Shown: positions 1 to 47,627 of the stretch, in pieces | Numbering within the stretch: the stretch's first letter is position 1 | Layout of the letters: each line of letters begins with the position of its first letter | NCBI GenBank assembly: GCA_965261595.1 | Contig: CBDHDG010000005.1 | Location: 16,977-80,976 of the forward strand | Source of the DNA: a bacterium | Lineage (GTDB): Bacteria > UBA8248 > JACPRG01 > G963555815 | Reading direction: 5' to 3' | Length of the DNA: 64,000 nt | Made by a program: the position numbers and the translations under genes | Notes under the pieces: generated by a model | What the model was told of the DNA's origin: nothing | Database searches by the model: none | What the model saw: the letters and a program-made list of their open reading frames with translations, nothing else

Positions 1-1
1 C

Positions 2-598
2 GAGGTGGAGGAATACGCCCACGGCATGAGCTACGGGGCCAGCGTGCTGCGGGACGGGGTCTCGCTCACCCAGCGCCGGGAGATGCGCTCCCTGGCCCTG
101 CCGTCGGAGATCATGCGGCTCGAGAACCTGAAAGGCTATCTGAAGTTCCCCGGGCCCTGGCCCGTGGCCCGGATCGGGCTCGACTACGTCAAGAGGCCCA
201 AGGCGGCCGAACGGTTCGTGCCGAGAGAGGAAGGGCCTTCGGAGCAGGGCGGTTGGGTCTCCGATGTGACCGCGGCCGATTCCGGAAGCGGGCGCGACAC
301 CGATGCCCCGGCGCCGGACGATGCCGGGAACGAAAGCGAGCATGGCGATACGGGCGCGGCGTGCTCAGCGGCGGAATGGACCGGCGATCAACCCGAGCTC
401 GGTCTCGAGCCGGCCCCGGCCGAATGCCGCGCGGTGGAAGCGGAAGGAGCGGAAATGCCCGAGGTCCCGGTTGCCGGTTCCGGCGGCCGGGATTCCGCTC
501 TTTCCGGGCAACGGGAAGACCCCGCGGCCGATCCGGATGAACCCGAGGACAGCGGCGCCGGCGGCGCGGACGAGCGCTGTCCGGTCGACTGGCTGTGA
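2..598 (+). CDS. Type IV secretion coupling protein (TraD/VirD4-like), C-terminal fragment; 5' end lies outside the window
   Basis: Frame is open from the window edge. ...SEIMRLENLKGYLKFPGPWPVARIGLDYVKRP... resembles the C-terminal core of TraD-type T4CPs and is followed by an acidic Pro/Ala-rich tail. The stop (596-598) overlaps the relaxase start (TGATG). Confidence 0.6.
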   Translation, partial: EVEEYAHGMSYGASVLRDGVSLTQRREMRSLALPSEIMRLENLKGYLKFPGPWPVARIGLDYVKRPKAAERFVPREEGPSEQGGWVSDVTAADSGSGRDTDAPAPDDAGNESEHGDTGAACSAAEWTGDQPELGLEPAPAECRAVEAEGAEMPEVPVAGSGGRDSALSGQREDPAADPDEPEDSGAGGADERCPVDWL

Positions 599-3579
599 TG
601 GTCGTCTCGATCGGCGCCGTCGCGTCCTCTGCCCAGGGCATCTCCTATTACGAGAGGGACGGCTACTACGCGAAGGACGACCCGGCCCACAGGGACGCGA
701 GCGCCTGGACCGGCAAGGGCGCGGAGGACCTCGGCCTCTCCGGCCCGGTCGATCCGGACCTCTTCAAGGCGGTGCTGGAGGGCAAGGTACTCGACGGGAC
801 CGGACGGCAACTCGGACGCGGGGGACCCGATGGGGCCCTGCAGCACCGGCCCGGGCGTGACCTGACCTTCTCGGCTCCCAAATCCGTCTCGCTGGCGGCG
901 CTGGTCGGCGGCGACGCCCGCATCGTCGAGGCCCATGACCGGGCGGTCAAGCGCTCGCTGGCCTGGATCGAGGGCAACGCCGCCGAGACCCGGTTGAAGG
1001 ACCCGGAGACCAGCCGCATGGTCCGCGCCGGGGACCAGAAGACGGTGGCCGCGACCTTCCGGCACGACGCCTCGCGCAATCTGGATCCCCAGCTCCACAC
1101 CCACGCGGTCCTCGCCAACATGGTCCAGGGCGGGGACGGCAAGTGGCGGACCATGGCCAACGAGGCGCTCTACCGCCGCCAGAAGTTGATTGGCTTGATC
1201 TACCGGAGCGAGCTCGCGCGGGAGTTGGGCAAGCTCGGTTACGGAATCGAGAAGAGCCATGCCGACGGACGCTTCGAGATCGCCGGGGTCCCGAGGAAGG
1301 TCATCGAGGCGTTCTCGACCCGGCGGGCCGAGATCGAGGCGGCGGTGGCCGAGCGGGGCATGAGCGGCACCGCCGAGAATCAGCGCCTCGCCGAGCGCGC
1401 GGCGCTGATGACCCGGGCCCACAAGCGCGAGGTCGACAAGGCGGCGCTCAGGGCAAGCTGGGAGAAGCAGGCCGCCGGGCTGGGGTTCGACGCGCGGGCG
1501 CTCGCAGCCGAGGCCATGGCGAGGGACTCCGGCCGGGAGAACGCTCCCGCACGGGATGTCGATCCCGCTTCGGCGAATGCTGCCGGGTCTCCCACCTCCA
1601 TCGCGGAAACCGACCCAACGCGGCGGGAACCGGCAACGAAGGAGCCGGCGGCCGAGGCCGCGGAATGGGCGATGGCGCATCTCGCCGAACGCGAGGCGGT
1701 GTTCTCGCGCGCCGATCTGCTCGCCGCCGCGCTGGCCTGGCAACCGGGCGCCGTGTCCGTCGAGGCGGCGGAGAAGGCGTTGGGCGATCTCGAAGGTCAG
1801 GGACGGCTCCATGCCGCGCCGGCATTGCATGCGGGCGACGGCATGACCACCGACAAGGCCCTAGTCGACGAGCGCGAGACGATCGGGCTGATGCAGGACG
1901 GACAGGACAGAAGCCCGGTGGTGATGCGAAGCTGGATGGTGAGCGCGCGGCTACACAAGGGACCGCTGACCGAGGGGCAGAAGCAGGCCGTCAAGCTGAT
2001 CCTGTCTTCGAAGGACCGCGTCGTCGGCGTGCAGGGCTATGCCGGCACCGGCAAGACCACCATGCTGCGGCGCGCCAACGCGCTCGCGGGCAAGAGCGGC
2101 TACCGCATGATGGGACTGGCGCCGTCGGCCTCGGCGGTGAAGACGCTGGCGACCGAAGCCGGGATCGAGAGCGAGACCCTGCAACGCTTCCTCGCGCGGA
2201 ACGCCGGGGTCGCCGAAGGGCGTTTGACGAAGAAGGGCGAGAAGGAGATGCGCGCGGCGTTCGCGAAGACCGTGCTCGTGGTGGACGAGGGATCCCTCGC
2301 CTCCACGGTCCAGGCCCGCGATCTGCTCAGGATCGCGAATGCGCTCCGCGTCCCCCGCGTAGTCCTGGTCGGCGACGAGAAACAGCTCGACGCTGTCGAC
2401 GCCGGAAAACCCTTTGCGCAGTTGCAGCGGGCAGGCATGAAGACGGCGGTGATGGACGAGATCCTGCGCCAGCGCGACCCGGAGCTGAAAGCGGCCGTGG
2501 AGGCGAGCCTCGCCGGCGAGATCGGCAAGGCCTTCGAGAAGCTCGGCCCCAACGTGGCCGAGGTCCAGGCCGACAACATCGCGGGCGCGGTGGCGGCGCG
2601 CTGGCTCAAGCTGTCCCCCGAGGCGAGAGAGAACACCGGCGTCATGGCGCCGAGCCATGAGCTTCGCCGGGAGATCAACGGCCATATCCGGGAGCGCCTC
2701 GCGCGCGACGGCAGGATCCACGGCCCCGCCTTCACGGGTGAGCGGCTGGTCTCCCACGGCTACACGAACGCCGAGAAGTCGCTCGCCGCCAACTACGCCG
2801 AGGGCGATATCGTCGCCTTCCACCGCCCCTACAAGACGCTCGGAATCGACAAGGGCGACGAGCGGCGGGTCGCCGACGTGGATCACAAGAGCCATACGGT
2901 GATACTCGAAGGCGGGGACGGCAGGACCGTTCCGTGGAAGCCAGGCCGGATCGCCGGGCGGACAGGCGGCGCCGAGGTCTACCGGGCCGATGGGATCGAG
3001 CTTCGCGCCGGAGACCGCATCCGCTGGACCCGCAACGACAAGGGCCTCGGCCTCGTCAACAGCCGCACCGCCGAGGTCGCGAGCGTGAAGGACGGCCGTG
3101 TGGCCTTCCGTCTGGAGGACGGGCGCATGCTCGACATGAAGGCGGGCGATCCCCAGCTGCGCCATCTCGACCACGCCTGGGCCTCGACCGTGCATGCCTT
3201 CCAGGGCCGGACGGTGGACAACGTGATCGCCGCGATGGAGGCCAATCACCCCCACCTCACCACGCAGAAGAGCTTCTATGTGGAGATCAGCCGCGCCCGC
3301 GACCGGGCCGAGTTGGTGACGGACGATGCGGCGCGGCTGCGCGAGCAACTCGAAACCGCCACCGGCGAGCGGATCTCGGCACTAGAGGGGATCGGAGAGG
3401 CGGCGCGGGACGCGCCGGCAAAGGGCATGGAAGCGGGTGAGAGGGCCGGACGATCGCCGGATCGAGGCGTGGAATCCGGTGCCGGGATGGAGCGAGACGG
3501 CGGCGGACAGGCGTCGAAGGATCGGGAACCTGCCCAGCCCGTGCGCGAAAAATCCACCGGGATGGACTTCGGCCTGTAG
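595..3579 (+). CDS. Conjugative relaxase: TrwC/TraI (MOBF)-type N-terminal domain fused to a RecD-like helicase
   Basis: N-terminal GISYYERDGYY. His-triad motif RHDASRNLDPQLHTHAVLANM. Walker A GVQGYAGTGKTT and Walker B VLVVDEGSL in the C-terminal half. 994 aa, coupled to the upstream T4CP gene. Confidence 0.9.
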   Translation: MMVVSIGAVASSAQGISYYERDGYYAKDDPAHRDASAWTGKGAEDLGLSGPVDPDLFKAVLEGKVLDGTGRQLGRGGPDGALQHRPGRDLTFSAPKSVSLAALVGGDARIVEAHDRAVKRSLAWIEGNAAETRLKDPETSRMVRAGDQKTVAATFRHDASRNLDPQLHTHAVLANMVQGGDGKWRTMANEALYRRQKLIGLIYRSELARELGKLGYGIEKSHADGRFEIAGVPRKVIEAFSTRRAEIEAAVAERGMSGTAENQRLAERAALMTRAHKREVDKAALRASWEKQAAGLGFDARALAAEAMARDSGRENAPARDVDPASANAAGSPTSIAETDPTRREPATKEPAAEAAEWAMAHLAEREAVFSRADLLAAALAWQPGAVSVEAAEKALGDLEGQGRLHAAPALHAGDGMTTDKALVDERETIGLMQDGQDRSPVVMRSWMVSARLHKGPLTEGQKQAVKLILSSKDRVVGVQGYAGTGKTTMLRRANALAGKSGYRMMGLAPSASAVKTLATEAGIESETLQRFLARNAGVAEGRLTKKGEKEMRAAFAKTVLVVDEGSLASTVQARDLLRIANALRVPRVVLVGDEKQLDAVDAGKPFAQLQRAGMKTAVMDEILRQRDPELKAAVEASLAGEIGKAFEKLGPNVAEVQADNIAGAVAARWLKLSPEARENTGVMAPSHELRREINGHIRERLARDGRIHGPAFTGERLVSHGYTNAEKSLAANYAEGDIVAFHRPYKTLGIDKGDERRVADVDHKSHTVILEGGDGRTVPWKPGRIAGRTGGAEVYRADGIELRAGDRIRWTRNDKGLGLVNSRTAEVASVKDGRVAFRLEDGRMLDMKAGDPQLRHLDHAWASTVHAFQGRTVDNVIAAMEANHPHLTTQKSFYVEISRARDRAELVTDDAARLREQLETATGERISALEGIGEAARDAPAKGMEAGERAGRSPDRGVESGAGMERDGGGQASKDREPAQPVREKSTGMDFGL

Positions 3580-4222
3580 TGTGGAGAAACTAACCGCCGC
3601 CGGGCATCTCCGCGCTTGCGACGACTCGTTTTTCTTCTACACATCAGACGCATCTTCGATGCTATGAGCGAGTCCGGTCCATCCCAAGGGACCGATTTCT
3701 ACTTTGTAACAGTCGATTAGGCCGTTTTCGGCCTCACACCGCGCCCCCCTGCGCGGGACGAGGCAAGCCGGCCGAAATGGACTTCGGCTTGTAAGCGAGG
3801 AACCGGTGTTGCCGTATCCTTTGGCGGGCTGTATCGTCATGATATTGAGCGGGGTTGTGGTATTTTCGGCGAGCGGTGGAGGGTTTTGGTTCATGGCGGC
3901 GGTGACGCGAGCCCACTTTAGAGAGGTGGTCATCCGGGAGGCCGGCTTGCCGCGCGACAAGGCGTCGCGGACTGGCCACAATCCCGCGACCGGCATGGAG
4001 GCGCCGATATCGCCGCACCGTGTGGTGACGTTCCGGCCGTTGCTCTGGCCGAGGGATTGGGAAAATAGCGGAATGGCGGGCACCGGCCGGAACGTCGGCC
4101 TGGAGTATTTCCGTCCGCCGGTTCGGGCGTCCATCTGCAACGAAGTCCAGGAATTTGTGAAGGCCGGCGCCAAAAGAGACAGCTGATCGAGTTCCGCATG
4201 GGCTTGATCGGAAACACAGATT

Positions 4223-4717
4223 GTGGCATACATGAATCTGGTGGAGGAGGCTCGGCCAGTGAGTGAGTCGTCCAGTTTCAAAATATCCGTTTGGAGCGCT
4301 TTTGCGCCCCAAACCGATCTGGCTATCGATACAGGTTCAGGTGAGCCGCAGGTTCGTGTGGTGGCCAAACAAAGTTCCGGCCTCCATAAGGAAGTATTCG
4401 GCTGGCGCATGTCCGAAGATCTTTTTGCCGGAATCGCCGACGAAAGTGACCGAGACAAACTGAAAGCGGCTTTATTCGACAAGATGGCAATCGACATCGA
4501 TCCGAATAAACGCTCAATCGATTCCCTCAAGTCTTTTGTCGATGTGGCTAACGAGATTCTTGACGCCAACCGTGTCGAATGGATCGGAAGCCAAAACCCT
4601 TCTGGAGACGATGACGAGAAAGGACGCCTGAATCCGCTACTCGCGCTGGTCAATCACCTATCATGGCTGATCGGCATGTTCAAGGACATGCCTAATACAT
4701 CGATCAGTGTTCGATGA
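4223..4717 (+). CDS. Hypothetical protein (164 aa), first gene of the low-GC three-gene cassette
   Basis: ORF with GTG at 4223 (alternative ATG at 4232). Its stop overlaps the next start as ATGA (4714-4717). G+C is visibly lower than the flanks. I recognise no motif. Confidence 0.55.
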   Translation: MAYMNLVEEARPVSESSSFKISVWSAFAPQTDLAIDTGSGEPQVRVVAKQSSGLHKEVFGWRMSEDLFAGIADESDRDKLKAALFDKMAIDIDPNKRSIDSLKSFVDVANEILDANRVEWIGSQNPSGDDDEKGRLNPLLALVNHLSWLIGMFKDMPNTSISVR

Positions 4718-6789
4718 TGGCCAAGAGTCTTACGCCGCCCGCCGATACCGTTGAAGCGGTTGCAGGCCTGTTCGAGCCAAACTCCATTTGCAACCTATCG
4801 ATACGGGAAGACCGTGCGTTCGGTCCCTCCGAGTTTCTTTGTCTCGGATCGATAAGACTTTTCCCGGAGGATAACGGTTTAGAGCACCGTGCTCGGGCCG
4901 TCCGGCGCGGGGCGTTTGAGTGGCGCGCGCCCGATGTCGCGGCGGTCAATAAAGAAATTCAGGAAGTCCTCGGCATTAAAGACCTGAAAGAAGAAGCAGG
5001 TATCCGGGCAAAGGACAAGGTCCTGAGAATTCTCGACATGTTCGGCGCCGTTCCGGTCCGTCTTGGTCTGAGTCATCCGATTTTCGATCCCCATGCTCTT
5101 GAGGACATGCCGTTTCGCCGACCGGTAACGGTCGTAAGTGACACGTCGGGCGTCTTGCAGGGCGGCCTCGGCTTTATATCGCGATATTTGCATCCGGCCG
5201 CCCGTATCAAGGTACCGGCCGTGACGCATATGGAGATTGTTAATTTCGCCGACAGATTTCTTAAAAATAGACGTGCGAGTAAAGTGAAGCGGCCGGACCT
5301 CATGATAGATCACCTCAATAGCCAAGCCGGCCAGAGAGTTCTTGTGCAACTTGAACTGCGTTCGGACGTCGAATTGGAAAGAACCTTCCTGTTAGGCGAT
5401 CCTTTGAGGGGTTCGTTTCAACATGATCAGGACCGGGAACTCAGTCAACTGAATCTCAGTATCCCGATCAAGTCGTACTCAGACCGACTGATTCTGGAAG
5501 CCACACGGCAACATCGGTCACAGGCGGATTCCAGTCATCGGGTCATGTTGCTCACGGGCGACCAAGGTCTAGCGCGCATGGCCATGGCGGAGGGAATAAA
5601 CTCGATATATTTCCACAGCGCGGGAGCCGATGCGTTCTTCGGCAAGCGCTTCACGGGAGCGAATTTCCATCCGTTTTCCGAGGAACTTCACACTACGAGT
5701 ATTCCGGAAATTCTATGGGAACTCGCCACCATTTCCGGCTGTGCGCGGCTGTCCGCGGAAGATCCCGAACGAAATCTAACGGTTCATGCAATCGGCGAAG
5801 ACCTTGCATGGGCTCCCTATCATTCGCAAGACGATCTTCTCTGGGTTGAATTTCCTGACGGTCCAGCGACTTCGTGTGGGCCGGTGGTCCGGAGCGCCGA
5901 AGCGACGCTCTCACCGGAGGCCAAGAGCCACGCCGTCGCGGAAGCGCCCAGCGGAAGCCGAGCCCGCCCGCCCGCCCGTCGGGGACCATTGGGCGAGGGC
6001 GGGGCCGCGAAGGCGGCCCTCTACAAGTTCAATCTCGGTCGTCTATTCGCCCTGATCGATAAATTGGAAATCCGTCAACAGCTTCCTGTCAACGAAGTTA
6101 TGACATCGCTTGGCGTTCGCACCGCAAGCGGACTGAGCGACTATCGTCGTTTCCTGGAGTCGGGCAAAACGATATTCGTGGACGAAGGAAGCTGGTCGGC
6201 GGCCCCTCCTCTGAGTCGTATCGCGGTTGTTCTCCAGAACGCCGATGTCGACGAATTGCGAAAAGAGCTTCGCTTGTTTCCGTCATATGTAGAACTGGAG
6301 CGGGTGTTGTCACAGGAAGCTGTCGGGGGTGCGTTCGATGCGACAACTTTCGGGCGGGCAGCGTATACGTATACGGCCTTGGCGGAGCTTGCGGAGCTTG
6401 GTGCATCCGTTCAGGGAAAGGGCTTTTTCGTCACCCCACGAGATCCCGGCGATGATGAGTTCGCGAAGATCGCCGTATCCGCATATGATCGGTTGGAGCT
6501 AGGCGGCAACTGGGTCGCGACGGGACGCTGGCTTGAAGAACTGATCGTGAATGATGGAATCCACCCCGTCGTTGCGCGGCGACGGCTGCAATCCGCCGCC
6601 AACCATGGCTTGGTCAAGCGCGTTACCGAAGGATCGACTACGGAAACCGGGCATGACCTTCAGACACTGAGGACGCTGGCGTTGAAGGACGGTGTCCCGT
6701 ATGTGAAGGTGGAGTATCTTTACAGAGGTGATTTCCTCATTCCGGGGAAAGCCAGTTCGAGTTTGAAAATCGAAATGATTGAGACATGA
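4714..6789 (+). CDS. PIN-like nuclease domain protein (691 aa) with an uncharacterised N-terminal region and a long C-terminal region
   Basis: Acidic residues are spaced as in PIN/YacL-type domains: VVSDTSGVLQGG, VTHMEIVNFADRF, YSDRLILEA, LLTGDQGLARMA. ATGA overlaps at both ends (4714-4717, 6786-6789). Confidence 0.7.
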   Translation: MMAKSLTPPADTVEAVAGLFEPNSICNLSIREDRAFGPSEFLCLGSIRLFPEDNGLEHRARAVRRGAFEWRAPDVAAVNKEIQEVLGIKDLKEEAGIRAKDKVLRILDMFGAVPVRLGLSHPIFDPHALEDMPFRRPVTVVSDTSGVLQGGLGFISRYLHPAARIKVPAVTHMEIVNFADRFLKNRRASKVKRPDLMIDHLNSQAGQRVLVQLELRSDVELERTFLLGDPLRGSFQHDQDRELSQLNLSIPIKSYSDRLILEATRQHRSQADSSHRVMLLTGDQGLARMAMAEGINSIYFHSAGADAFFGKRFTGANFHPFSEELHTTSIPEILWELATISGCARLSAEDPERNLTVHAIGEDLAWAPYHSQDDLLWVEFPDGPATSCGPVVRSAEATLSPEAKSHAVAEAPSGSRARPPARRGPLGEGGAAKAALYKFNLGRLFALIDKLEIRQQLPVNEVMTSLGVRTASGLSDYRRFLESGKTIFVDEGSWSAAPPLSRIAVVLQNADVDELRKELRLFPSYVELERVLSQEAVGGAFDATTFGRAAYTYTALAELAELGASVQGKGFFVTPRDPGDDEFAKIAVSAYDRLELGGNWVATGRWLEELIVNDGIHPVVARRRLQSAANHGLVKRVTEGSTTETGHDLQTLRTLALKDGVPYVKVEYLYRGDFLIPGKASSSLKIEMIET

Positions 6790-7886
6790 GCCTCCGCGAA
6801 AAACTGGGGAGTAAGCAGGGAACCAGCCGCGATTCTCTTCTGTCGGACTTCGGCGTTCTTTCCAACCCCTTTCCGACTGCGAATCAGACCCTTGATAATC
6901 CTCATTATCCTGTACCGAAGGATGATGAGGCAGAAGAAAGAATTATTACGTTCCTGCGGGAGATGAAATCCGAAGTCCTGGTTGTTCTCGGCACCCAAGG
7001 GGTCGGAAAAACCAATTTCCTCAATTACCTAGACGGGCAAATCCAAGAAGTAAAAGACACACTGGACGGCTACTACATTGTCCGGTATATGGCTGATCCG
7101 GAACCGTCCTTCGACGCGACGGTTCGCATGATCTTTTTGGAATTCGGGATTCCACATCTTAAAAAAATCGCGGAATCTCTATCCAATTCACGCGATGCGT
7201 TGTCTACCGTTAGATCCTATGACCTGAGAGAGGCCCTGTCGGCCCTTTCCGATAATCCTGACGATAACGAACTTCTCGGGCTTTGCCAACAGTGGTTGTT
7301 CGGCTCGCGTCTTCTGAAGGCTCACAGGAACGGCCTCGGTGTCAACTTTAGGCTGGACACAGTGGAATCACGCACGGCAGCATTACGAGACTATATCATG
7401 CTCAGCGCGGAACTGGGATTATTGAAGGGCATATTCCTTTTGCTTGACGAGTTAGAAAAGCAGGCGGGCGTGCTCGGTCCCACAGCGGTGGTCCGCTACC
7501 TGTCGGGTTTACGGGCGATCATGGACGCACTTCCGAAGCATCTGTTTATGATCATAGCTGTTACGCCGGACGCGATGCGCAGGTATTCAAGCGCCCTTCC
7601 CGCCTTTCGGAGCAGGTTGGAAAATCAGATTGAGTTAGAGCCTCTTGCCAATTCCAAAGAGGCAATGGGTTTGGCGAAATTCTATCTGGAGAAAGCGAAG
7701 TCGGCGGTTCCCGTGAAGCAAAGGAAATCGGGCTCGCGAGATTTGGTGACCGAGCCAGAGATGTTAAATATTTTTAACGATTCAATGAAGTTATCGAAAC
7801 GCCGCGGCGACGACGGTGTTCGGCAGCGAGAATTTCTGAACGGGCTACACGACATCGCGGAAAAGAAAATTCAAAAACGTGTGTGA
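6786..7886 (+). CDS. P-loop AAA+ ATPase, ExeA/AAA_22-like (366 aa)
   Basis: Walker A VLGTQGVGKTNF and Walker B IFLLLDELEK. The N-terminal FGVLSNPFP resembles the FGL..PF start of ExeA-like ATPases. Start overlaps the stop of the PIN-like gene. Confidence 0.75.
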   Translation: MSLREKLGSKQGTSRDSLLSDFGVLSNPFPTANQTLDNPHYPVPKDDEAEERIITFLREMKSEVLVVLGTQGVGKTNFLNYLDGQIQEVKDTLDGYYIVRYMADPEPSFDATVRMIFLEFGIPHLKKIAESLSNSRDALSTVRSYDLREALSALSDNPDDNELLGLCQQWLFGSRLLKAHRNGLGVNFRLDTVESRTAALRDYIMLSAELGLLKGIFLLLDELEKQAGVLGPTAVVRYLSGLRAIMDALPKHLFMIIAVTPDAMRRYSSALPAFRSRLENQIELEPLANSKEAMGLAKFYLEKAKSAVPVKQRKSGSRDLVTEPEMLNIFNDSMKLSKRRGDDGVRQREFLNGLHDIAEKKIQKRV

Positions 7887-8046
7887 CCGGGTTGACAGGG
7901 ACGGCTCCGTCATCGATTCAGGATGGCTGCGCGCGCCCCTCACGCATCAGTAATACCAAACTGAACTGGCAATGCACGGCAGGTTTATGCGGTTGCGTTG
8001 GGGGCGGTAGCCCAACAGCGGTACATAATGGAGGCGATCCGGTCGA

Positions 8047-8615
8047 TCAGCCGATCCCGGGATCGGGGCGATCGGGCGCCAATTCGTCCAGCCTGGGGCC
8101 GAAGACACGCTTGAAATCCAGCAGTTTGTCGATCATCCAATCTTCTATTTCTTTCAGCGTCTCCGAGTCGCCGTCAATGCTACCTTGGCGCACGACCGCA
8201 ATGCGGCTCGCCCTGTGATCGTCCAGGCGTTCCCAATTCAAGCGATTCCGAGAGTTCGGATTCGATGGATTCTTTTCGTTCCATGAGGCGGTCGAACAGA
8301 ATCTTGTTCCAATCCCTATCGGTGTTATCGATATAAACTTCAATCCTGGCTCTTTTCTCTTGAACGAAAGTAGCGCCGTATTGAACGCGTTGCGCATGCC
8401 CCGCCGAGAAGTAGTACCAACTTTGAAGCTGCGCCTTGCGCACATTCGTGAATCCTCGCTCTCTGAGCGCGTCCATGATTTCCTGCAAAAAACGCTTGGT
8501 AGCGAAGGTTCTTATCCGAGTCCCCAAGCCAAGGAGTGAAATCGGCGGCCTCGTGCGGCCAAGCCTCACGGAGGTCGGCCTTTTCGATGCGACCAAGTCC
8601 CGCCGTTTCCGTCAT
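8047..8615 (-). pseudogene. DUF4268-containing nuclease-like gene, internally deleted and frameshifted
   Basis: Homology runs through three overlapping frames. The N-terminus is LGRIEKADLREAWPHEAADFTPWL (ORF 8340-8693). The DUF4268 core is WYYFSAG...IEVYIDNTDRDWNKILFDRLMERKESIESEL (8180-8596). The tail is NWERLDDHRASRIAV... (8047-8445). The expected nuclease core between TPWL and DUF4268 is missing. Confidence 0.6.
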
Positions 8616-8689
8616 TGTTCTCTCCCTCCCTTTCGGTTTTCCATCGAACGCATGCGGTTCAGTAGCCGGGTGTTTCTCGACGGCCGGCT

Positions 8690-9073
8690 TCATTTCGAGG
8701 CATCTTCCAGGATCGTCGCCTGGGTCTCCCGGGCCAATTTTATCATCTCGTCGAGTTCGTCGCCGCGCCCTTCGCGGAGCATTTCATCGCGTTTGAGGGT
8801 CGCAACGATGTACGTGCTTCGATAGATGCGCTCGATCAGCGCGACGATTCCTAGCGGCATCACGGTGGGGTCCGCGATGTTCTTGTTCCGGGCGAGGTTC
8901 AGAGCGGCATCGCGGACAAACTCGGCAGCCGGGATTTTATGCTCTGCTGCCGCCGTTTTGACCCGTTCCCACTCGGAATCCGAGAACCGGATTGCCCGCG
9001 GCGTGCGCGTGTCGGTCTGCTTTTCGTCTGGAGTCGCGCCGGTTTCAGCGTCAGTTCGCTCGTTTTCGCTCAT
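8690..9073 (-). CDS. Ribbon-helix-helix (CopG/MobC-like) DNA-binding protein
   Basis: From ATG 9073: MSENER...PRAIRFSDSEWERVKTAAAEHKIPAAEFVRDAAL, a typical RHH beta-strand plus helix pattern. 127 aa. Confidence 0.6.
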   Translation of the reverse strand: MSENERTDAETGATPDEKQTDTRTPRAIRFSDSEWERVKTAAAEHKIPAAEFVRDAALNLARNKNIADPTVMPLGIVALIERIYRSTYIVATLKRDEMLREGRGDELDEMIKLARETQATILEDASK

Positions 9074-9167
9074 GGTTTTCTCTCTCCGGGTCGCGGTTTT
9101 CGTTCGGAAATGCACAGATTTCCCCAGGGAACGGAAGCGGTTCCGTGCTCCACAGCGTCTAATCCCC

Positions 9168-9280
9168 GTATATCGGTGCAGCATACACGGCCGTCACAAC
9201 TGCGACATGAGCGTATACCGGTCGTATGCCGGTCAGAAACAAAATACAGCAATATCAATGTTTTAGACTCGTATATCGGT
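9168..9280. promoter_or_regulatory. Four copies of GTAT[AG][TC]CGGT upstream of the RHH gene (candidate operator or relaxosome-accessory binding sites)
   Basis: gtatatcggt 9168-9177, gtataccggt 9213-9222, gtatgccggt 9224-9233 (abutting tandem with the previous copy), gtatatcggt 9271-9280. All lie 95-207 bp upstream of ATG 9073. Confidence 0.4.
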
Positions 9281-9653
9281 ACGGCATACGCTCGATCCAA
9301 CAACACCGGGGCAGCTATTGGTGCCGTTTGCGCGGGAAACGGGATGACAAGCGCGCACCTAGATGCGAGGGCATCAACGATGCGTGGGGTGTGAGAGTAA
9401 AAGCGCCGACCGGCGTCCGACAGACCAAAATGTGAGGAACGAGCGAAGAGGGGATCTCCGCGGGCGCGTGACGCGCGGGGGAGCCGCCGCGGCGATTGAG
9501 CGGGCGGCCGTGCGGAGCACAGTGCATGGAGCGGTGCAGGACGGATTGAGCAGTGGGGTCCGCACCGGTGCGGTGCACAGTGCAGCGGGACGTGAAGGAA
9601 GGAAGAACGGGCCGCGCCGCCGGGTGGCGACGCGACCCGCGAGGTCGTTCGAC

Positions 9654-10577
9654 TCAGGCGGCGACGCACTGGACCGGGATACCGAGCTTGCGCGCCTTGT
9701 CGACCAGATTGTCGGTGATGCCCGAGCCCGGGAACGCGATGACGCCCTTGGGGAGGAGATCGAGCAGCTCGTCATTGCGCCGGAAGGGCGCCGCGCGTCC
9801 GTGTGCGTCCCAGTTGGGCTTGCAGACGATCTGGTGGACGCCGTTGCGGTCCGCCCACTTGGCCGCGATCTTCTCGACGCCGGGACCACCGCCGTGGACC
9901 AGGACCACATCGTCGTACTTGGCCTTGAGCTTCTCGAGGGTGCGGATGATGGCGCCTGCGTCGCCGGTCTGCTTGCCGCCTGCCACCGCGACGAGCGTTC
10001 CCTGGGGCAGGAGCGCCTTGTTCTCGCGGTCCCTGCGGGCACGCTGGAAGTCGCGGGCGTCGATCATGGCCGAAGTGAGCTTGCCGGTCTGGGAGGTGTG
10101 GGACCCGCGCCGGGGCCGCCAGAGGTCTCCGGTCTCGACCCGGTAGGCCTCGGCCGCTGCATCTCTGAGTTGCTCGAAGGCGTCCCGCCGGTCCGTGAGG
10201 TTCTTGGTTCGGTCGGTGACGAGTTCGAGCTCTCGGGACCGGATCTCCGAGCCGTCCTGCTCTCGCTGGAGGTCGCGCATGTCGGGGAGGAGCCTGTCGG
10301 CCGCGCGGTCGAGGCGTTGGGTCTGGGCGTCGAGCATGTTGACGAATCCCCAGAGCAGGCTCTCGCGCTCGTCGGCGAGTTGCGTTCCGTCGGGCGCGAC
10401 GCCGTGTGCCATGATGCGGAAGGCTTCCGTGACGGCGGAGAGGGCGTTCTCCGGGTCCCAGACCTCCCGGTTGTCGAATTCGTCGCGCTCCGGGGTTGCT
10501 CCGAAGAGAGCCGCCTGGTCGCAGACGGTGGCGGTGACGGACTGGTTCTGTTCTGAGATGTTGTCGATATCGTGCAT
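9654..10577 (-). CDS. DUF2493 (SLOG-like) domain protein typical of conjugative elements
   Basis: C-terminal VLVHGGGPGVEKIAAKWADRNGVHQIVCKPNWDAHGRAAPFRRNDELL...AFPGSGITDNLVDKARKLGIPV matches the DUF2493 pattern. Start taken at MHDIDN (10577). Confidence 0.75.
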   Translation of the reverse strand: MHDIDNISEQNQSVTATVCDQAALFGATPERDEFDNREVWDPENALSAVTEAFRIMAHGVAPDGTQLADERESLLWGFVNMLDAQTQRLDRAADRLLPDMRDLQREQDGSEIRSRELELVTDRTKNLTDRRDAFEQLRDAAAEAYRVETGDLWRPRRGSHTSQTGKLTSAMIDARDFQRARRDRENKALLPQGTLVAVAGGKQTGDAGAIIRTLEKLKAKYDDVVLVHGGGPGVEKIAAKWADRNGVHQIVCKPNWDAHGRAAPFRRNDELLDLLPKGVIAFPGSGITDNLVDKARKLGIPVQCVAA

Positions 10578-11379
10578 GATGCTCTCCTTCCGGGTAGAGG
10601 GTTGAGAACCGTTACGGTTCGTTGTGCGGAGAGAGTCTCCGAACGTGATGGTTGAGTGGCCCACGCGCGCGCAGCAAAGTCACCGTGGCCGCAAGGCCTG
10701 GCGCGGCGAGGGGCGCGAGTGGTGCGGGCGCACAAGCGACCGCAGGGAGCGCGGAGCCTCGGTCGCGTTTCTCGCCACGCCTAGGCGCGCAGCGCCGTAG
10801 CCTTGCGAGCCAGGGCCGGAACGGAGCGGAGCGTAGTGTAGGACCCGCGGAGCGGGTTGGCGCAGCGAGCACGTGTGGGACAATGGGCCATCACGTCGAG
10901 AGGGATATTGTTTGCCACTGTCCCGGACGCCCTGTGCGGTTCCGGGATTGAGACCCGGGTCTCGGGCGCCGGCCCGGCAAGCGTAGCGCGCAGCGAGCGC
11001 CAGCGAGCGGAGGCGATAGGGATAGAAGCGCAAATCGGAGCGGAGCGGAGATTGCAGCGGGGAGCCCGGCCCGAAGGGATCGCCCGAAGACGGCATGGCC
11101 CGTCACCGCAACGGACGCGTATCGACGAGTCGCTCCGCAACCTCGCAGGCGAGATTGCCATGGTGGTAGACCCTCGACTCGTACGGGCGATGCTCCTCAA
11201 GGTAACGGATTGCATTTCGGTTCTCCTTCCGTGTTGCTGGTGCCCGGGGCCCTCTCTCTCCCTCCTCGCGGCGTTCGCCCCTCTCGCGCTTCACTCTCCC
11301 CTCCGTTCCGCCAGAACGGAGGCCGCCCATGCCGCGCGGCGCGGGCGAGGACCTGCCCATGGCAGGGCAGCGGCGCGCA

Positions 11380-11463
11380 TCAGAAGGCCAGTGGCTTGCC
11401 GTAAAGGGCCGCGAGCGCCGCCCGCAGGGCTGGCGCATGCCTGAGATTGACGATGTGCGCCAT
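11380..11463 (-). CDS. Possible 27-aa small ORF downstream of the Toprim gene
   Basis: AAGGAG lies 8 nt upstream of the ATG (11463). Sequence MAHIVNLRHAPALRAALAALYGKPLAF. No other support. Confidence 0.2.
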   Translation of the reverse strand: MAHIVNLRHAPALRAALAALYGKPLAF

Positions 11464-11504
11464 GCTCTCTTCTCCTTTGGAGCCGTTCACCCCTCCCCCG
11501 CTCT

Positions 11505-12521
11505 TCACTCCCTCTCTCCGACCCGCTGCGGCGCGGGGAACAGGGCGGCGAGCCGAAGAGCCAGGGCCCGGGGTCCGAGAGTAACCAGATCGTCGTTGAA
11601 GTCGCCGTATTCGGAGACGATGACGTGGGCGGCGACGCCCGCCCGCGCGCAGCGCCGGGCGAGGCGTTGGGCGGCCCGTTCGCCCTCGGAATCGTTGTCG
11701 CGGGCGATGACGAGCCGTTTGAGCCCGCCAGGTGGAGCGAAGGCGCTGAGGCTTCCGGCCGAGAGCGCGGCCGCCGAAATGACCCCGGGCGCCGCGGTGA
11801 CGATCGACAGCACCGTCTCGATGCCTTCGCCGACGAGCAGCGAAGCGCCGTCGGCGGGCTTGCCGAAGCACACGGCGCGTCCGTGGATGCGGCCGAGCGC
11901 CTTGCGCGGGGCCGCATCCACGGACGCCTTGGCGGGCAAGCGCGAATCGAGCCAGGTGCGCTGCACGCCTTGGATGGCGCCGTCGTCGCCGGTCACGGCG
12001 GCGACCAGCGCCGGAAAACGGCGCAGGGAAGAGCCTTCGCGATAGCGAAGCTCGGGATGGAAGCGCAATGCCGGGAACCGGCAGCGCGCGAGTCCGCGGG
12101 CGTGGAGATAGGCCTCGGCATGGGTGCCGCCGATGGCGCGGCAACCCCGCCAGAGGCGGCGGGCCGCTTCTGTTGCGTCGTAGCCCTCGCCCGGCGCCGG
12201 CGGAGCCGGCAGGGCGAGGGAGGCGCGGGCCTCGGCGAGCGCCGCGCGAAGCGTCGGCGCGCCCGAGCGATGCCGGACGAGATCGAGCAGGTCGCCGTGC
12301 TCTCCGGTGGCCGCGTCGGTCCACTTCCCGGGGACGCCGGGACCGTGCAGGCGGACGAAGAGCGAGCGGCCGCGAGCGCCTTCGAGATCACCGGCGACCC
12401 AGTACCGGCCCTGCTTTTTGCCCTGGGGCAGGTAACGCCGGCAGACGGCCTCGGCGCACGCGCCGAGCGCGGCGGCGATGTCGGCGGCGGGAGATACGGA
12501 ACGGGACGATGGGGGCGGCAT
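11505..12521 (-). CDS. Toprim-domain primase-like protein (ICE/plasmid type)
   Basis: From ATG 12521: LLVGEGIETVLSI (Toprim Glu) and VIARDNDSEGERAAQRL (DxD). N-terminal YLPQGKKQGRYWVAGD...GDLLDL as in DUF7146-type proteins. The upstream part of the 492-aa track ORF is Arg/Gly junk. Confidence 0.75.
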   Translation of the reverse strand: MPPPSSRSVSPAADIAAALGACAEAVCRRYLPQGKKQGRYWVAGDLEGARGRSLFVRLHGPGVPGKWTDAATGEHGDLLDLVRHRSGAPTLRAALAEARASLALPAPPAPGEGYDATEAARRLWRGCRAIGGTHAEAYLHARGLARCRFPALRFHPELRYREGSSLRRFPALVAAVTGDDGAIQGVQRTWLDSRLPAKASVDAAPRKALGRIHGRAVCFGKPADGASLLVGEGIETVLSIVTAAPGVISAAALSAGSLSAFAPPGGLKRLVIARDNDSEGERAAQRLARRCARAGVAAHVIVSEYGDFNDDLVTLGPRALALRLAALFPAPQRVGERE

Positions 12522-15756: not shown

Positions 15757-16674
15757 TCATGCGGCCTCCGCAACTTGAGCGAGTTTTTCCTGCCTTGCCT
15801 GGGCCGGCGTTCGGTAGCCGTAGCCCTCGAGAATCCAATGATGGTTGTACAGGTTTTTGAACTCAAGCAGCGCCCACCGCAGTTCCTCTACGGTGGCGAA
15901 AGAGCGCACCCACAGGAGATTCTCCTTCAAGATGCGGATAAACCACTCACAGTAGCCATTTCCCTCGGGCGCCCGCACGAAGCTGGGCGAACTGGTCATG
16001 CCCAGGTAGGCGATCTCCCGCTGAAAGTCATCGGACAGATAGGCGGGGCCGTGGTCGTGACGAACTTTAAGCCCCTCGGCGACGTCCGCCTCCAAGCCGG
16101 CGAAGCGCTCGGCGACCCCCTGCCGGATCGGCTCCAGGGCCTCGAAGCGGTTGCCGCTCTTGGCCGCATGGATCCCCACGCAGTCCACCGAGCAGTGATC
16201 CACCGCCACGAACACCGAGGCCACCCCCTCCTCGGTGGTCACCGTCGTCGTCATGTCCGTGCCCCACATTCGGTCGGGCCGCTCGGTGCGGATGGTCCCG
16301 TTGTGGGCCTTGGGACCTCGGGGTTTGCCCACCCGGTGGGGGGCCTGAAGCCCCGCCTCCCGCATCAGGCGACGCACCCGCTCCTTGCTGGTGCGGATGC
16401 CCGCGAAGCGCAGCCTCGCCCACACCTTGCGGTAGCCCTCGCCATGGAAGGGAGAGTCCTCCAGGACCTGCCGGATGTGGCCGAGGAGTTCCGCATCGGT
16501 GCACGGGCCCACAGGGCCGCGCTTATTGGGCGTGGGGCGTTCATGAACGGGGACCGCCTCTCGCCGCCGTTGCGCGTAGACCGTGGAGCGCGCCAAGCCC
16601 CAAAGGGCGCACACCCGCTTCAGGCCGTAGGCTCTGCCCGTGGAGGTGAAGCGGGCCTGACTCATCGCCTCCAC
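15757..16674 (-). CDS. IS3-family transposase OrfB (rve integrase core)
   Basis: DRMWGTDMT...VAVDHCSVDCVGIH...HDHGPAYLS...EGNGYCEWF gives a DDE spacing typical of IS3 OrfB. It is in the -1 frame relative to orfA. Confidence 0.9.
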   Translation of the reverse strand: MEAMSQARFTSTGRAYGLKRVCALWGLARSTVYAQRRREAVPVHERPTPNKRGPVGPCTDAELLGHIRQVLEDSPFHGEGYRKVWARLRFAGIRTSKERVRRLMREAGLQAPHRVGKPRGPKAHNGTIRTERPDRMWGTDMTTTVTTEEGVASVFVAVDHCSVDCVGIHAAKSGNRFEALEPIRQGVAERFAGLEADVAEGLKVRHDHGPAYLSDDFQREIAYLGMTSSPSFVRAPEGNGYCEWFIRILKENLLWVRSFATVEELRWALLEFKNLYNHHWILEGYGYRTPAQARQEKLAQVAEAA

Positions 16675-17048
16675 CTCCTGCCGGCTAAAGGGCGGCCGGC
16701 CTCCAGGCGGTCGATCTTCTCCCGCAGGACCTCGCCCTCCATCGTGAGTTCGCCCACCTTGGCCTTGAGCCGGGCGTTCTCCTCGGCCCGCTCATCCGCC
16801 GGGCGGGCTTTGAGCGCCGCCTCGCCCCCGCGAAGGAACGCCTCGCGCCAGGCGGAAAGCCGAGCCGCTGTCGTGCCCAACTCGCGGCAGAGCGTCTCCA
16901 GGCTCTCGCCCCGCAAAAGACGCAGGACCGCCTCCCGCTTGCGCTGGCAGGAGAACCGACCCCGCTCACTGCGATGCCCTGGGGCCTTGGCTCCGTTCGC
17001 CCTGCGGGCGCCCTCCGCCAAAGCCCCCTCTTGCTTTTGTTCGTTCAT
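16662..17048 (-). CDS. IS3-family transposase OrfA (HTH plus leucine zipper)
   Basis: MNEQKQEG...FSCQRKREAVLRLLRGESLETLCRELGTTAARLSAWREAF...ENARLKAKVGELTMEGEVLREKI. Confidence 0.85.
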   Translation of the reverse strand: MNEQKQEGALAEGARRANGAKAPGHRSERGRFSCQRKREAVLRLLRGESLETLCRELGTTAARLSAWREAFLRGGEAALKARPADERAEENARLKAKVGELTMEGEVLREKIDRLEAGRPLAGRRWRR

Positions 17049-17599
17049 CGCGACACCCCTTTCTCCATGAATCATGGATCAATCGAGTGTCCAACAAAAC
17101 CCTAGAGCGGGGGACTTGTACCCCCGGCGCGCAGGGGCCGGATGTCGCCGTCAGCCATTGACCGGAAGCGCTCGACCACGTAGCGGTCGTCATCGAGACC
17201 TTGGCCGAACAGGTGGGTGAGGAAGGTGCTTGCGTTGCCGGGATGGGTCTGGACCGTGGGCATGGTGCCGTCCTCCTTCGGGTCGATGGTTAAGAGAGGC
17301 GGCGATGCCCTCCCCGGGACATCCGTCCGCCGCCCCGCTCACGGCCCGGCTCGGCCTCTTCGCGGCGCATTGCGCGTCTGTGAATAGCGGTGGAGATGTC
17401 GTTGTGGTGAATGTTTCGGTGGGTGGGAATTCGACCCCCTCGGCCACCGCGGGCTGCCCGTGGTTCGGACGGGGGTATCCTAAATCTACCGATTCTGGGG
17501 AAAACTCACGTCCACGGGCTGTCGCCCACCTCAGGGCGGGGGCGACAACCATAACCTTTCCATCAAAACGGGATAACTCAAGTACATGAACCCCTTGGT

Positions 17600-21945: not shown

Positions 21946-22335
21946 TCATAAGAGAGTGCGCCTGCGTTTTTCAAGCCAACTCCGGGCTCGCTCGGAGTTG
22001 ACGGCCCACATGCCGGAGCCCTTGCCTCCGGGGGAATAGAAGGGTGCTTCGGAATCAGGCAATCCCCTCTGCCTGAAAACGGTGGAATCGACACAGTTTT
22101 GATTGTAGGAACTCTGAACAGCTTCCTCGAACTTTCCAGGGATAGGTAATCCAGTATCTTTGCGTTGCTTTTCAAGTGTGTCGAGAATCCACCTCCTCGT
22201 CATTCCATTTTTGTGCGGCAGCAGGAGCTTGATCAAGCCCTCGACATAGGTGTGTTCCTTTCTTAACTTCGCCAATTCGATGACTTCAACAATGTTACGA
22301 CATAATGCGTCATAGTCAGGCCCATTTTCGGCCAT
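21946..22335 (-). CDS. Hypothetical protein (129 aa), low GC
   Basis: Clean ORF from ATG 22335 in a low-GC patch between two different IS1595-type elements. No motif recognised. Confidence 0.5.
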   Translation of the reverse strand: MAENGPDYDALCRNIVEVIELAKLRKEHTYVEGLIKLLLPHKNGMTRRWILDTLEKQRKDTGLPIPGKFEEAVQSSYNQNCVDSTVFRQRGLPDSEAPFYSPGGKGSGMWAVNSERARSWLEKRRRTLL

Positions 22336-27838: not shown

Positions 27839-28212
27839 CTCCTGCCGGCTAAAGGGCGGCCGGCCTCCAGGCGGTCGATCTTCTCCCGCAGGACCTCGCC
27901 CTCCATCGTGAGTTCGCCCACCTTGGCCTTGAGCCGGGCGTTCTCCTCGTCCCGCTCATCCGCCGGGCGGGCTTTGAGCGCCGCCTCGCCCCCGCGAAGG
28001 AACGCCTCGCGCCAGGCGGAAAGCCGAGCCGCTGTCGTGCCCAACTCGCGGCAGAGCGTCTCCAGGCTCTCGCCCCGCAAAAGACGCAGGACCGCCTCCC
28101 GCTTGCGCTGGCAGGAGAACCGACCCCGCTCACTGCGATGCCCTGGGGCCTTGGCTCCGTTCGCCCTGCGGGCGCCCTCCGCCAAAGCCCCCTCTTGCTT
28201 TTGTTCGTTCAT
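27826..28212 (-). CDS. IS3-family transposase OrfA, copy B
   Basis: Same as copy A except ADERDEEN vs ADERAEEN. Confidence 0.85.
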   Translation of the reverse strand: MNEQKQEGALAEGARRANGAKAPGHRSERGRFSCQRKREAVLRLLRGESLETLCRELGTTAARLSAWREAFLRGGEAALKARPADERDEENARLKAKVGELTMEGEVLREKIDRLEAGRPLAGRRWRR

Positions 28213-46578: not shown

Positions 46579-46889
46579 TGGACGCTCGGATAACGACTCG
46601 ACATCGGAAATGGCCAAAGACATTCCAATTGAAAGTAATAGGATGGGTCGGTTTCGTCAAGTGAAATGGAGTTTGGGGGGGACCTCCATCTCTGAAGTCG
46701 CCGGTCCCCGGGAAGGATGCGACGTCTGGGTTTCCCATGTTTTGGACCCATGCCTGCGGCGGAGGATCCGTAATTTGATACAATCCGGATGGAAGCGGTG
46801 GATTCCGGTTCCGGCGCGAAGTCGCGGAACCGGATTCGTCCAGGACGTCTCAAAGACTGCCGACTCCCGGTCAACGGGCAAGACGCCGC

Positions 46890-46899
46890 GGGGGGGGGG
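46890..46899. repeat. G10 homopolymer just upstream of the methyltransferase SD/ATG
   Basis: Ten consecutive G, 6 nt before GAGGA (46906-46910) and 17 nt before ATG 46916. Confidence 0.9.
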
Positions 46900-46915
46900 C
46901 TGTCCGAGGATTTTC

Positions 46916-47590: not shown

Positions 47591-47627
47591 GGGCGACAAA
47601 GGCGGCCGGCCTGGAACCGCCGAATGG

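Follow-up and report, generated by a model that had tools for sequence, protein, structure and literature searches.

Near the left end of a bacterial DNA stretch of 64,000 nucleotides (contig CBDHDG010000005.1, positions 16,977 to 80,976; the whole stretch is referred to as the window), three + strand open reading frames (ORFs) form a compact cassette. These ORFs, hereafter genes 1, 2 and 3 or collectively the trio, span positions 4223-4717 (164 aa, GTG start), 4714-6789 (691 aa) and 6786-7886 (366 aa). They encode a small acidic protein, a predicted PIN nuclease carrying winged helices and a predicted AAA+ ATPase resembling BrxD, and are co-translated, inherited and transferred strictly together. 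We consider it probable that the trio is an autonomous, self-contained and horizontally mobile three-component system of defence against phages and plasmids, of a type not yet catalogued.

The cassette and its three proteins

Consecutive genes are chained by ATGA stop/start overlaps, located at 4714-4717 between genes 1 and 2 and at 6786-6789 between genes 2 and 3. The overlaps had been pointed out in an earlier reading of this DNA made from the sequence alone (the sequence-only reading), which had also estimated the G+C content of the cassette at about 50 %, against about 65 % in its flanks. The direction and the approximate size of this difference were right, the measured values being 0.49-0.61 for the cassette (500-nt windows, 4250-8000) and 0.68-0.75 for regions 1-3500 and 9500-12500. 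Overall, the cassette forms a trough of 52-56 % G+C in surroundings of ~70 %. At third codon positions, G+C (GC3) is 0.56-0.60 in the three cassette genes and 0.8-0.88 in neighbouring genes.

Gene 2 was modelled with AlphaFold2 (AF2) from the alignment of its homologues, and the model, whose mean pLDDT (predicted local distance difference test) is 85, is divided into five parts. Residues 135-300 (pLDDT ~90) adopt the alpha/beta/alpha PIN fold and represent the most conserved portion of the protein, with 66 % identity. Foldseek comparison of the model against the Protein Data Bank (PDB) retrieved, for this part, SMG6, EST1A, the Thermus thermophilus structure 3ix7, AF0591, Nmd4, PRORP, the archaeal PIN-ATPase PINA and SiRe_0806, which binds cyclic tetra-adenylate (cA4); a probability of 1.0 was obtained for the PIN domains of SMG6, EST1A, 3ix7, AF0591 and Nmd4. 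The PIN_4 profile is matched at E <= 0.1 by all 25 gene 2 homologues compared with it (25/25, best 1.2e-5). The four acidic positions which the sequence-only reading had assigned to a PIN active site, D143, E174, D257 and D283, turned out to be invariant among 110 aligned homologues. On the strength of the predicted fold and of these catalytic residues, with the Pfam threshold being marginal, gene 2 is a predicted nuclease of the PIN superfamily, with an active-looking site.

The N-terminal domain of gene 2 (1-115) has no family match and a mean identity of 34 % to homologues, and the linker which precedes the C-terminal half is disordered (pLDDT <50 at 384-431) and hypervariable (entropy 3.3 bits, 11 % identity). 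For the C-terminal half, Foldseek detected MarR, IclR, the tandem winged helices of UFL1, Stn1 and CapW; the winged-helix array seen in the model (436-691) is presumed to be the region which binds or recognizes nucleic acids. The protein ends in a conserved beta module, TEGSTT...LYRGD(Y/F)LIPGK, where E639-G640-S641-T642 and R671-G672 are invariant. Viral structural relatives of gene 2 were not found at E <= 1e-3, the only viral matches being weak ones to PhoH-family and PIN proteins. By sequence, no PDB relatives were found for genes 1 and 2, and only P-loop-level matches for gene 3.

Gene 3 passes the threshold of the BrxC_BrxD family (PF10923, formerly DUF2791) with 27.9 bits against a cut-off of 22.2, although only part of the profile is covered (positions 160-323 of 414); most gene 3 homologues, too, have a precomputed match to this family. 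The protein stays below threshold for AAA_22, ATPase_2, NACHT and NB-ARC. It had been likened to ExeA and AAA_22 ATPases, and this assignment holds for the broad clade and fails for the specific family, since AAA_22 (PF13401) reaches 18.9 bits against a cut-off of 27 and covers residues 63-141 only. The Walker A (GTQGVGKT, residues 69-76) and Walker B (LLLDELEK) motifs, already recognized in the sequence-only reading, are confirmed by 119 homologues, in which Walker A, D221/E222 of Walker B and several arginines are invariant. Further features are an N-terminal FGVLSNPFP motif and the conserved arginines R266/R275/R277.

The AF2 model of gene 3 (pLDDT 85, predicted template modelling score 0.79) shows an AAA+ core with five parallel strands and a helical lid. 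A helical insert of ~100 residues (109-212), located between strand 2 (96-102) and strand 3 (215-221), is much longer than the usual helix-extension-helix of initiators. The chain ends in three lid helices (290-365), and no winged helix is present in the model. The best Foldseek matches are archaeal ORC2/Cdc6/Orc1 (E ~1e-6), related to the origin recognition complex (ORC), and eukaryotic ORC4/Cdc6, followed by TnsC, RADAR RdrA, MuB and the N-terminal part of BrxC. From this model, the profile match and the invariant motifs, gene 3 can be placed in the ORC/Cdc6 clade as a standalone and active-looking AAA+ ATPase, BrxD-like and with the features of the clade save for the winged helix.

Gene 1 had been taken as a protein of 164 aa. 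The corresponding ORF exists, and its true start is likely to be GTG 4259, giving 152 aa, rather than GTG 4223, because a Shine-Dalgarno-like run, GGAGGAGG, lies just 5' of GTG 4259, gene callers choose this codon and the closest relative retains it, which is not the case for the ATG at 4232. The protein is acidic (median isoelectric point 4.9) and is most conserved at its C-terminus, where the sequence ...N.LLAL..HL.WL..CF..RPGISVSVR runs into the overlap with gene 2. No match was found in Pfam, NCBIfam or PADLOC, and 52 homologues were likewise devoid of Pfam domains and of consistent weak domain matches. When 1.84 billion representative proteins were searched with a profile, 194 clusters of relatives were retrieved, all ~150 aa long, standalone and aligned to the very C-terminus; the possibility that gene 1 occurs fused to known domains was thereby rejected. 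A duplication of part of gene 2 or 3 was similarly discarded, as hhalign probabilities are about 1 % or less. By these sequence comparisons, gene 1 appears to be a family specific to the cassette, with no detectable relatives outside it.

A short likeness was observed between the tail of gene 1 (residues 137-152, ~4667-4714; L..CF.DRPGISVSVR) and residues 16-31 of gene 2 (~4759-4806; VAGLFEPNSICNLSIR), which form the first helix/strand of that protein. With an hhalign probability of 1 % it is possibly due to chance, but it may hint at a strand-swap or mimicry interface.

Conservation, spread and genomic surroundings

Related loci were collected by two independent scans of a set containing one genome per species, for a total of 185,579 species. 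A pattern scan for gene 2 yielded 57 loci, while a scan seeded with gene 3 yielded 103 relatives, of which the 80 best loci were kept, 78 of them newly fetched. Genes 1-2-3 were found by tblastn in the same order and on the same strand in 53/57 gene-2-seeded loci, the remainder being cut by contig ends or degraded, and in order in 74/78 gene-3-seeded loci, the other 4 being truncated. The ATPase subfamily was therefore never seen with another partner, and the three genes, read from the beginning as one cassette, are a strict block. The overlaps are kept as well, as ATGA in 49/52 related loci for genes 1 and 2, and as ATGA or GTGA in 48/56 loci for genes 2 and 3. All-against-all clustering of flanking ORFs revealed no fourth conserved gene; apart from the three genes themselves, what recurred were shadow ORFs lying within them. 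Conservation is uneven along the cassette: identity is 66-81 % in the catalytic cores and 27-39 % in gene 1, in the N-terminal domain of gene 2 and in its first winged helix.

Carriers are few and scattered, amounting to ~57-103 of the species representatives. They belong to Alpha-, Beta- and Gammaproteobacteria, Cyanobacteria, Acidobacteriota, Binatia, Planctomycetota, Gemmatimonadota, Nitrospinota and Armatimonadota, and many gene-3-seeded loci come from Cyanobacteria, Desulfobacterota, Planctomycetota, Gemmatimonadota, Nitrospinota and Thiomargarita; for several metagenome-assembled genomes, taxon labels are those written in their records. Relatives of gene 2 were not found by tblastn in 72,556 PLSDB plasmids or 50,697 INPHARED phage records, nor by a pattern scan of IMG/VR.

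A 4.0-kb block of the window (4064-8071) is 89.7 % identical to a Binatia chromosome (locus L001), while the flanks are unrelated. Similarity ends ~160 bp ahead of gene 1 and, on the other side, ~190 bp past gene 3; within the ~185-bp tail at 7887-8071 it is still ~85 %, continuing until ~8075, where it collapses. It follows that the cassette is transferred as one compact piece. No terminal inverted or direct repeats were found at the block ends 4064/8071 in a search over 3600-8700. The tail shows no significant RNA structure (z = -0.25 vs shuffles), no Rfam match and no terminator consensus. A simple scan of the leader (4064-4258) found no sigma-70 consensus promoter. Cassettes in decay were also encountered (L039, L048, L053 and L054, and also L049 and L056), in which gene 2 or the junction of genes 2 and 3 has taken up insertions, frameshifts have occurred or gene 3 is lost; this shows an ongoing gain and loss of the trio. 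Horizontal mobility is deduced from the patchy spread, the GC3 contrast, the block common to Binatia with unrelated flanks and the disrupted copies.

The left edge of the block, at ~4064, falls within a strong hairpin (17-nt arms, 94 % complementary; -42.7 kcal/mol, z = -3.4), one arm of which is inside and the other outside; the Binatia relative does not retain it in this form. An Rfam search over 3400-9500 returned only a chance-level miRNA match, located at this hairpin (4026-4099).

The neighbourhoods of the trio include known defence systems. Hma genes surround it in three loci, with matches between E = 0 and 1e-109: the order is hmaB, trio, hmaA in L017 and L050, whereas in L038 it is hmaA, trio, hmaB, followed by hmaC. 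In L046, L137 and L057 it abuts genes for HmaC or for phospholipase D (PLD)-helicase/HmaB-like proteins. In L020 it is found inside a PglXI-type bacteriophage exclusion (BREX) locus, in the order PglXI, AbiEii-like gene, BREX helicase, trio, PglZ, and starts 80 bp after the helicase gene on the strand of the latter. Judged locus by locus, the trio is recurrently embedded in known defence systems, many other loci being neutral. The suggestion of the sequence-only reading that the cassette could be a defence or addiction system is supported: the trio is in or beside Hma or BREX genes at seven loci, and none of the refuting outcomes named in that reading came out of the computational tests. Genes embedded in Hma proved to be real defence systems in 7/9 tests (Payne et al., bioRxiv 10.1101/2024.01.29.577857), and back-up nucleases, PIN among them, are reported to be recruited into BREX and related (BR) loci (2026 BREX survey, PMC12839542). 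The AbiEii-like gene of L020 is a nucleotidyltransferase ORF (3932-4636 of that locus), embedded between PglXI and the helicase; together with the trio it makes two nested modules in one BREX locus.

Elsewhere, the nearest neighbours are heterogeneous, and comprise transposases, resolvases, relaxases, Eco57I, SNF2/DrmD-like helicases, Abi_alpha and DUF499. An island of Peteryoungia contains reverse transcriptase, SNF2, IS66, T5orf172 and MmeI genes near the trio, an Agrobacterium locus a KAP NTPase and a resolvase, and Rhizobium loci resolvases. In the closest relative, L063, the trio stands between LexA-ImuAB-DnaE2 and VapBC. BREX and Hma genes are missing within 8-10 kb of the trio in about 90 % of loci, this window included; the examination of the window for such genes covered its first 25 kb and detected none.

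In the window, the cassette is carried by a conjugative element, as relaxase, coupling protein and other conjugation genes are located around it. The C-terminal end of a TrwB-type coupling protein is followed by a TrwC relaxase/helicase (TrwC + AAA_30), and downstream of the cassette genes for a NikA-like protein, a YspA/SLOG protein, a DUF7146-Toprim protein and a single-stranded DNA-binding protein (SSB) are found on the opposite strand, followed by many insertion sequences. The contig is 1.12 Mb long, and the element is probably integrated. This is compatible with its earlier naming as an integrative and conjugative element (ICE). The cassette had also been placed immediately after the relaxase gene; it does lie downstream, but at a distance of ~645-680 bp, where an ORF retaining only a 29-residue piece of a HU/IHF-type domain (PF00216, 23.6 bits) is found, probably a remnant cut when the cassette inserted. 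No near match was found in PLSDB for the relaxase flank.

Coordinates of the cassette parts, and of further features observed in the window, are collected in the table below. Just outside the block common to the Binatia locus lies a DUF4268 gene related to the PADLOC candidate PDC-S11, broken by a frameshift, which bears out the earlier remark that defence-type genes nearby are wrecked; of the profile, the stretch 6-88 is read in the frame of ORF 8183-8596 and the stretch 85-139 in that of ORF 8050-8445, the N-terminal ~170 residues of the model being missing. The 336-aa YspA/SLOG protein carries its YAcAr domain at the C-terminus; its gene adjoins the NikA-like gene, upstream of the Toprim and SSB genes; such a set is characteristic of the side of conjugative elements that enters early. 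Insertion sequences are dense beyond ~14 kb: besides three near-identical copies of a two-ORF element (137-aa + 305-aa; HTH_21/rve integrase core), Mutator, IS1595-type, DDE_Tnp_1_4 and DUF772 transposases occur elsewhere in the window. The sole tRNA gene, for tRNA-Phe, is a possible integration site for the conjugative element. Four - strand ORFs of low GC3 (0.55-0.60) match no Pfam family and may be other foreign cargo genes.

Table. Parts of the cassette and other features of the window. Positions refer to the window.
Feature	Position	Strand	Basis or remark
Upstream non-coding leader, presumed promoter/5' untranslated region	4064-4258	+	homology to Binatia locus L001 starts here; promoter inferred
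Gene 1, acidic ~152-aa orphan (maximal ORF from GTG 4223)	4259-4717	+	ORF, gene callers, homologues
Gene 2 residues 1-115, N-terminal alpha/beta domain, fast-evolving	4714-5058	+	AF2 pLDDT >90
Gene 2 residues ~135-300, predicted PIN nuclease domain (PIN_4/SMG6/YacL type)	5116-5613	+	profile, residues, fold
PIN acidic residues D143, E174, D257, D283	5140-5142, 5233-5235, 5482-5484, 5560-5562	+	
Gene 2 residues 301-435, small acidic alpha/beta domain (301-383), then hypervariable basic linker (384-435)	5614-6018	+	
Gene 2 residues 436-691 and stop, winged helix-turn-helix (wHTH) array	6019-6789	+	AF2 pLDDT >90, Foldseek
Gene 3, predicted standalone ORC/Cdc6-clade AAA+ ATPase, BrxD-like	6786-7886	+	PF10923, AF2, Foldseek
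Gene 3 Walker A, G69-T76	6990-7013	+	
Gene 3 helical insert	7110-7421	+	
Gene 3 Walker B, LLLDELEK	7437-7460	+	
Downstream non-coding tail moving with the cassette, end of block common to L001	7887-8071	+	alignment
TrwB-type coupling protein, C-terminal end	5-598		
Relaxase (TrwC + AAA_30)	595-3579		
ORF with HU/IHF-type piece	3806-4186	+	PF00216
Hairpin	4024-4100		
Broken DUF4268 gene	8047-8596	-	PDC-S11 profile
YspA/SLOG protein	9654-10664	-	
Two-ORF insertion sequence, three copies	15757-17075, 26921-28239, 55777-57095		
tRNA-Phe gene	47754-47829	-	
Low-GC3 ORFs	21946-22335, 30875-31897, 46871-47599, 62660-63847	-	

Proposed function and rival explanations

Proteins of the ORC/Cdc6 type normally bind DNA through a helical insert and a C-terminal winged helix. 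In the simplest model, gene 3, being devoid of the latter, would join the winged-helix array of gene 2, and the two would make up an ORC-like switch that binds nucleic acid in an ATP-dependent manner. In it, ATP binding or hydrolysis would control the grip of the array on nucleic acid and hence the activity of the PIN site. Recognition of foreign DNA, or of some infection cue, would lead to an ATP-driven assembly or remodelling able to release or position the PIN active site, which would then cut nucleic acid. PIN domains of the SMG6/YacL type usually cut RNA; for this reason RNA is the likelier target, and its cleavage would give abortive infection, but structured or single-stranded DNA would also be possible. 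Gene 1, the N-terminal domain of gene 2 and the first winged helix are candidate sensor or specificity surfaces, because variability of this kind is expected where parts meet fast-evolving invader molecules. Gene 1, made first and in a fixed ratio via the ATGA coupling, would most likely silence the nuclease until a trigger arrives, in an antitoxin-like manner, or act as an adaptor between nuclease and ATPase; as an acidic, system-specific protein which is made first, it is the best candidate for either role.

A more specific version of this scheme, possible but doubtful, is an origin-recognition-like immunity, in which the ATPase would borrow the winged helices of the PIN protein and assemble on a feature of the invading replicon, such as a phage or plasmid origin or conjugative DNA upon entry, thereby licensing the PIN domain, with gene 1 as an inhibitor built into the system or as the receptor of the trigger. 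Given its nesting in BREX and Hma, the trio may in addition work as a tripwire when these are blocked by anti-restriction proteins.

Several points weigh against a defence role of this kind. Hma or BREX genes are next to the trio in only 7 of roughly 94 distinct loci, the 110 nearest neighbours include many ordinary metabolic genes, and in Blastomonas (L059) and Vicinamibacterales (L062) the trio stands alone among housekeeping genes. In the window, gene 2 scores 21.5 bits with PIN_4, just under the gathering cut-off of 21.9 (E = 3e-4). The defence role is argued from genomic context and domain content, and the partner complex, the trigger, the PIN substrate and the role of gene 1 are all inferred. 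The uncatalogued status, moreover, holds with respect to PADLOC-DB v2.0.0, and a later description is possible.

The cassette could instead be an addiction module similar to toxin-antitoxin (TA) pairs, with the PIN protein as the toxin, gene 1 as the antitoxin and the ATPase as a regulator, whose loss would kill the cell and which would here stabilize the conjugative element on which it rides. This explanation, which we judge unlikely though not negligible, accounts well for a small, acidic upstream gene translationally coupled to a PIN gene, as in VapBC, for the location beside TA pairs in the closest relative (L063) and for the persistence as an isolated insertion among housekeeping genes; it also overlaps with a defence role, as many TA modules double as defence systems. 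It accounts poorly for the lack of tblastn matches in the PLSDB plasmids, where addiction modules abound, and for the several decayed copies, unexpected for a strong addiction module. Moreover, the PIN domain is of PIN_4/SMG6 type within a 691-aa multidomain protein and not a VapC of ~130 aa, gene 1 contains no ribbon-helix-helix (RHH), AbrB, PhD or helix-turn-helix (HTH) antitoxin domain, a conserved AAA+ ATPase is obligatory, and nesting inside Hma and BREX points to immunity. The same nesting would be explained if the trio were a back-up or accessory module dependent on BREX/Hma-type systems. It would then work only together with a methyltransferase/helicase system, for example by firing when that system is inhibited, as PrrC does with EcoprrI, and gene 3 would play the part of BrxD. 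The BrxC_BrxD match of gene 3, the position in L020 between BREX helicase and PglZ, 80 bp after the former and on the same strand, the Hma embedding in three loci and the recruitment of PIN and other back-up nucleases by BREX/BR loci (PMC12839542) would all fit. Dependence is nevertheless quite improbable, given that ~90 % of loci lack BREX or Hma within 8-10 kb, that the first 25 kb of the window contain neither, that the cassette transfers alone as a 4-kb block and that in type 2 BREX BrxD pairs with the BrxHI helicase and not with a PIN protein (PMC12839542).

Two further explanations dispense with immunity. A mobility or DNA-processing module, made of a target-selection ATPase of the TnsC/MuB type and a nuclease moving the cassette, or else a helper of conjugative DNA processing, would be in keeping with TnsC and MuB among the structural neighbours of gene 3, with a 4-kb block moving between distant genomes without an integrase of its own, with the position between the relaxase and NikA-like genes in the window and with relaxase genes next to the trio in 2-3 other loci. 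It is very improbable, as terminal inverted repeats and target duplications are missing, conservation of the non-coding ends does not extend past the closest relative, genomes were found to have a single copy each and most loci have no conjugation genes nearby; in addition, PIN domains are not known to act as transposases. Hardly any credit is given, lastly, to a housekeeping complex for RNA processing or regulation, acquired horizontally: PIN_4 domains do occur in housekeeping RNases such as YacL and PhoH2, and the weak viral structural matches are to PhoH-family and PIN proteins only, but the trio is present in <0.1 % of species, with a patchy phylogeny and foreign composition, its copies frequently decay, and it is located in islands and inside defence systems.

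If the favoured reading of the trio as an autonomous defence system is correct and the trio proves protective, it would be a new entry in the catalogue of bacterial immune systems and the first in which a PIN nuclease is paired with a standalone ATPase of the ORC/Cdc6 type (BrxD-like). A tractable three-protein model would likewise be gained for the role of BrxD-like ATPases, still obscure even in BREX. Gene 1 adds a protein family without relatives of known structure or function, and the trio is a further case for finding defence genes through their embedding in Hma or BREX. Because it is rare, and mostly found in uncultured environmental bacteria, cyanobacteria and rhizobia, it would be absent from screens centred on E. 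coli and Bacillus, as it is from PADLOC-DB v2.0.0. As intact immune or addiction cargo, it would affect which phages and plasmids are tolerated by the host of the element.

Comparison with known systems

The sequence-only reading could not attach the cassette to a named system, and profile searches placed it in none (PADLOC-DB v2.0.0, Pfam, NCBIfam, PDB). In PADLOC-DB v2.0.0, which includes PDC and HEC candidates, genes 1 and 2 have no match at E <= 0.1, and gene 3 matches only mad8 (5e-4), DpdH (0.015) and PtuA (0.02), always over the P-loop region. PIN_4 and BrxC_BrxD are the only domains matched in Pfam and NCBIfam. A description of the trio was not found in the literature on DUF2791, BrxD + PIN, PIN_4 + phage, PIN + Cdc6 + defence and SiRe_0806, nor is one given by Payne et al. 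or by the 2026 BREX survey.

The closest counterpart of gene 3 is BrxD, described in type 2 BREX as a standalone ORC/Cdc6 ATPase without a winged helix, whose partner is the BrxHI helicase (PMC12839542). Both are ATPases of ~370 aa, with a helical insert after strand 2, conserved arginines, a helical lid and no DNA-binding domain. The obligate partners of gene 3, however, are the PIN-wHTH protein and the orphan protein instead of BrxHI, and PglX, PglZ, BrxC/PglY, PglW and BrxHI are not conserved around the trio in the 57 + 78 loci, BREX genes being present only in L020.

VapBC resembles the trio in having a small upstream gene which overlaps the start of the PIN gene, and in the conserved acidic catalytic residues. 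Gene 2 is, however, five times larger than VapC, with four extra domains, and the VapC-type profile PF01850 matches only 5/25 of its homologues, weakly; gene 1 lacks an antitoxin DNA-binding domain, and the ATPase is obligatory. In archaeal PINA (5f4h), the fourth-best structural match of gene 2, and in PhoH2, a PIN domain is joined to a P-loop ATPase, as in the trio, but the two share one chain and the ATPase is RuvB-like or PhoH-type, whereas the trio has separate genes and an ORC/Cdc6-like ATPase. The ExeA/GspA ATPases belong to the same broad AAA+ clade as gene 3, whose N-terminal FG..NPF-type motif presumably resembles the N-terminus of ExeA; AAA_22 is below its cut-off and no secretion genes are nearby.

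Among conflict systems, the association of ORC/Cdc6-type ATPases with nucleases and with recognition proteins of the multi-wHTH kind has been described as a theme (PMC10853773). Compared with SspB/SspC of SspABCD and with the neighbourhoods formed by Orc/Cdc6, restriction endonuclease (REase) and wHTH proteins (PMC10853773), the trio has a PIN nuclease and not a REase fold or the SspB nickase, its winged helices are fused to the nuclease and theirs to the ATPase, and it contains no modification genes and one extra orphan gene; no sequence similarity was detected. The HEC-03 and OLD-ABC + PIN modules similarly associate an ATPase with a PIN nuclease and are embedded in Hma or BREX, HEC-03 being among the Hma-embedded candidates chosen for testing (bioRxiv 10.1101/2024.01.29.577857). 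HEC-03 is the case nearest to the trio. These modules differ in consisting of two genes, for an ABC ATPase and a small VapC-like PIN protein, as opposed to three genes with an AAA+ ATPase of the ORC/Cdc6 clade and a PIN_4 domain within 691 aa, and the PADLOC models which include these candidates do not match genes 1 or 2.

The trio is not BREX, as the core genes are absent, nor VapBC, from which its architecture departs, nor any PADLOC v2 system. By analogy, it would work like the defence modules which couple an ATPase to a nuclease, and most specifically like the theme of ORC/Cdc6, nuclease and multi-wHTH proteins and the ATPase + PIN modules embedded in Hma or BREX.

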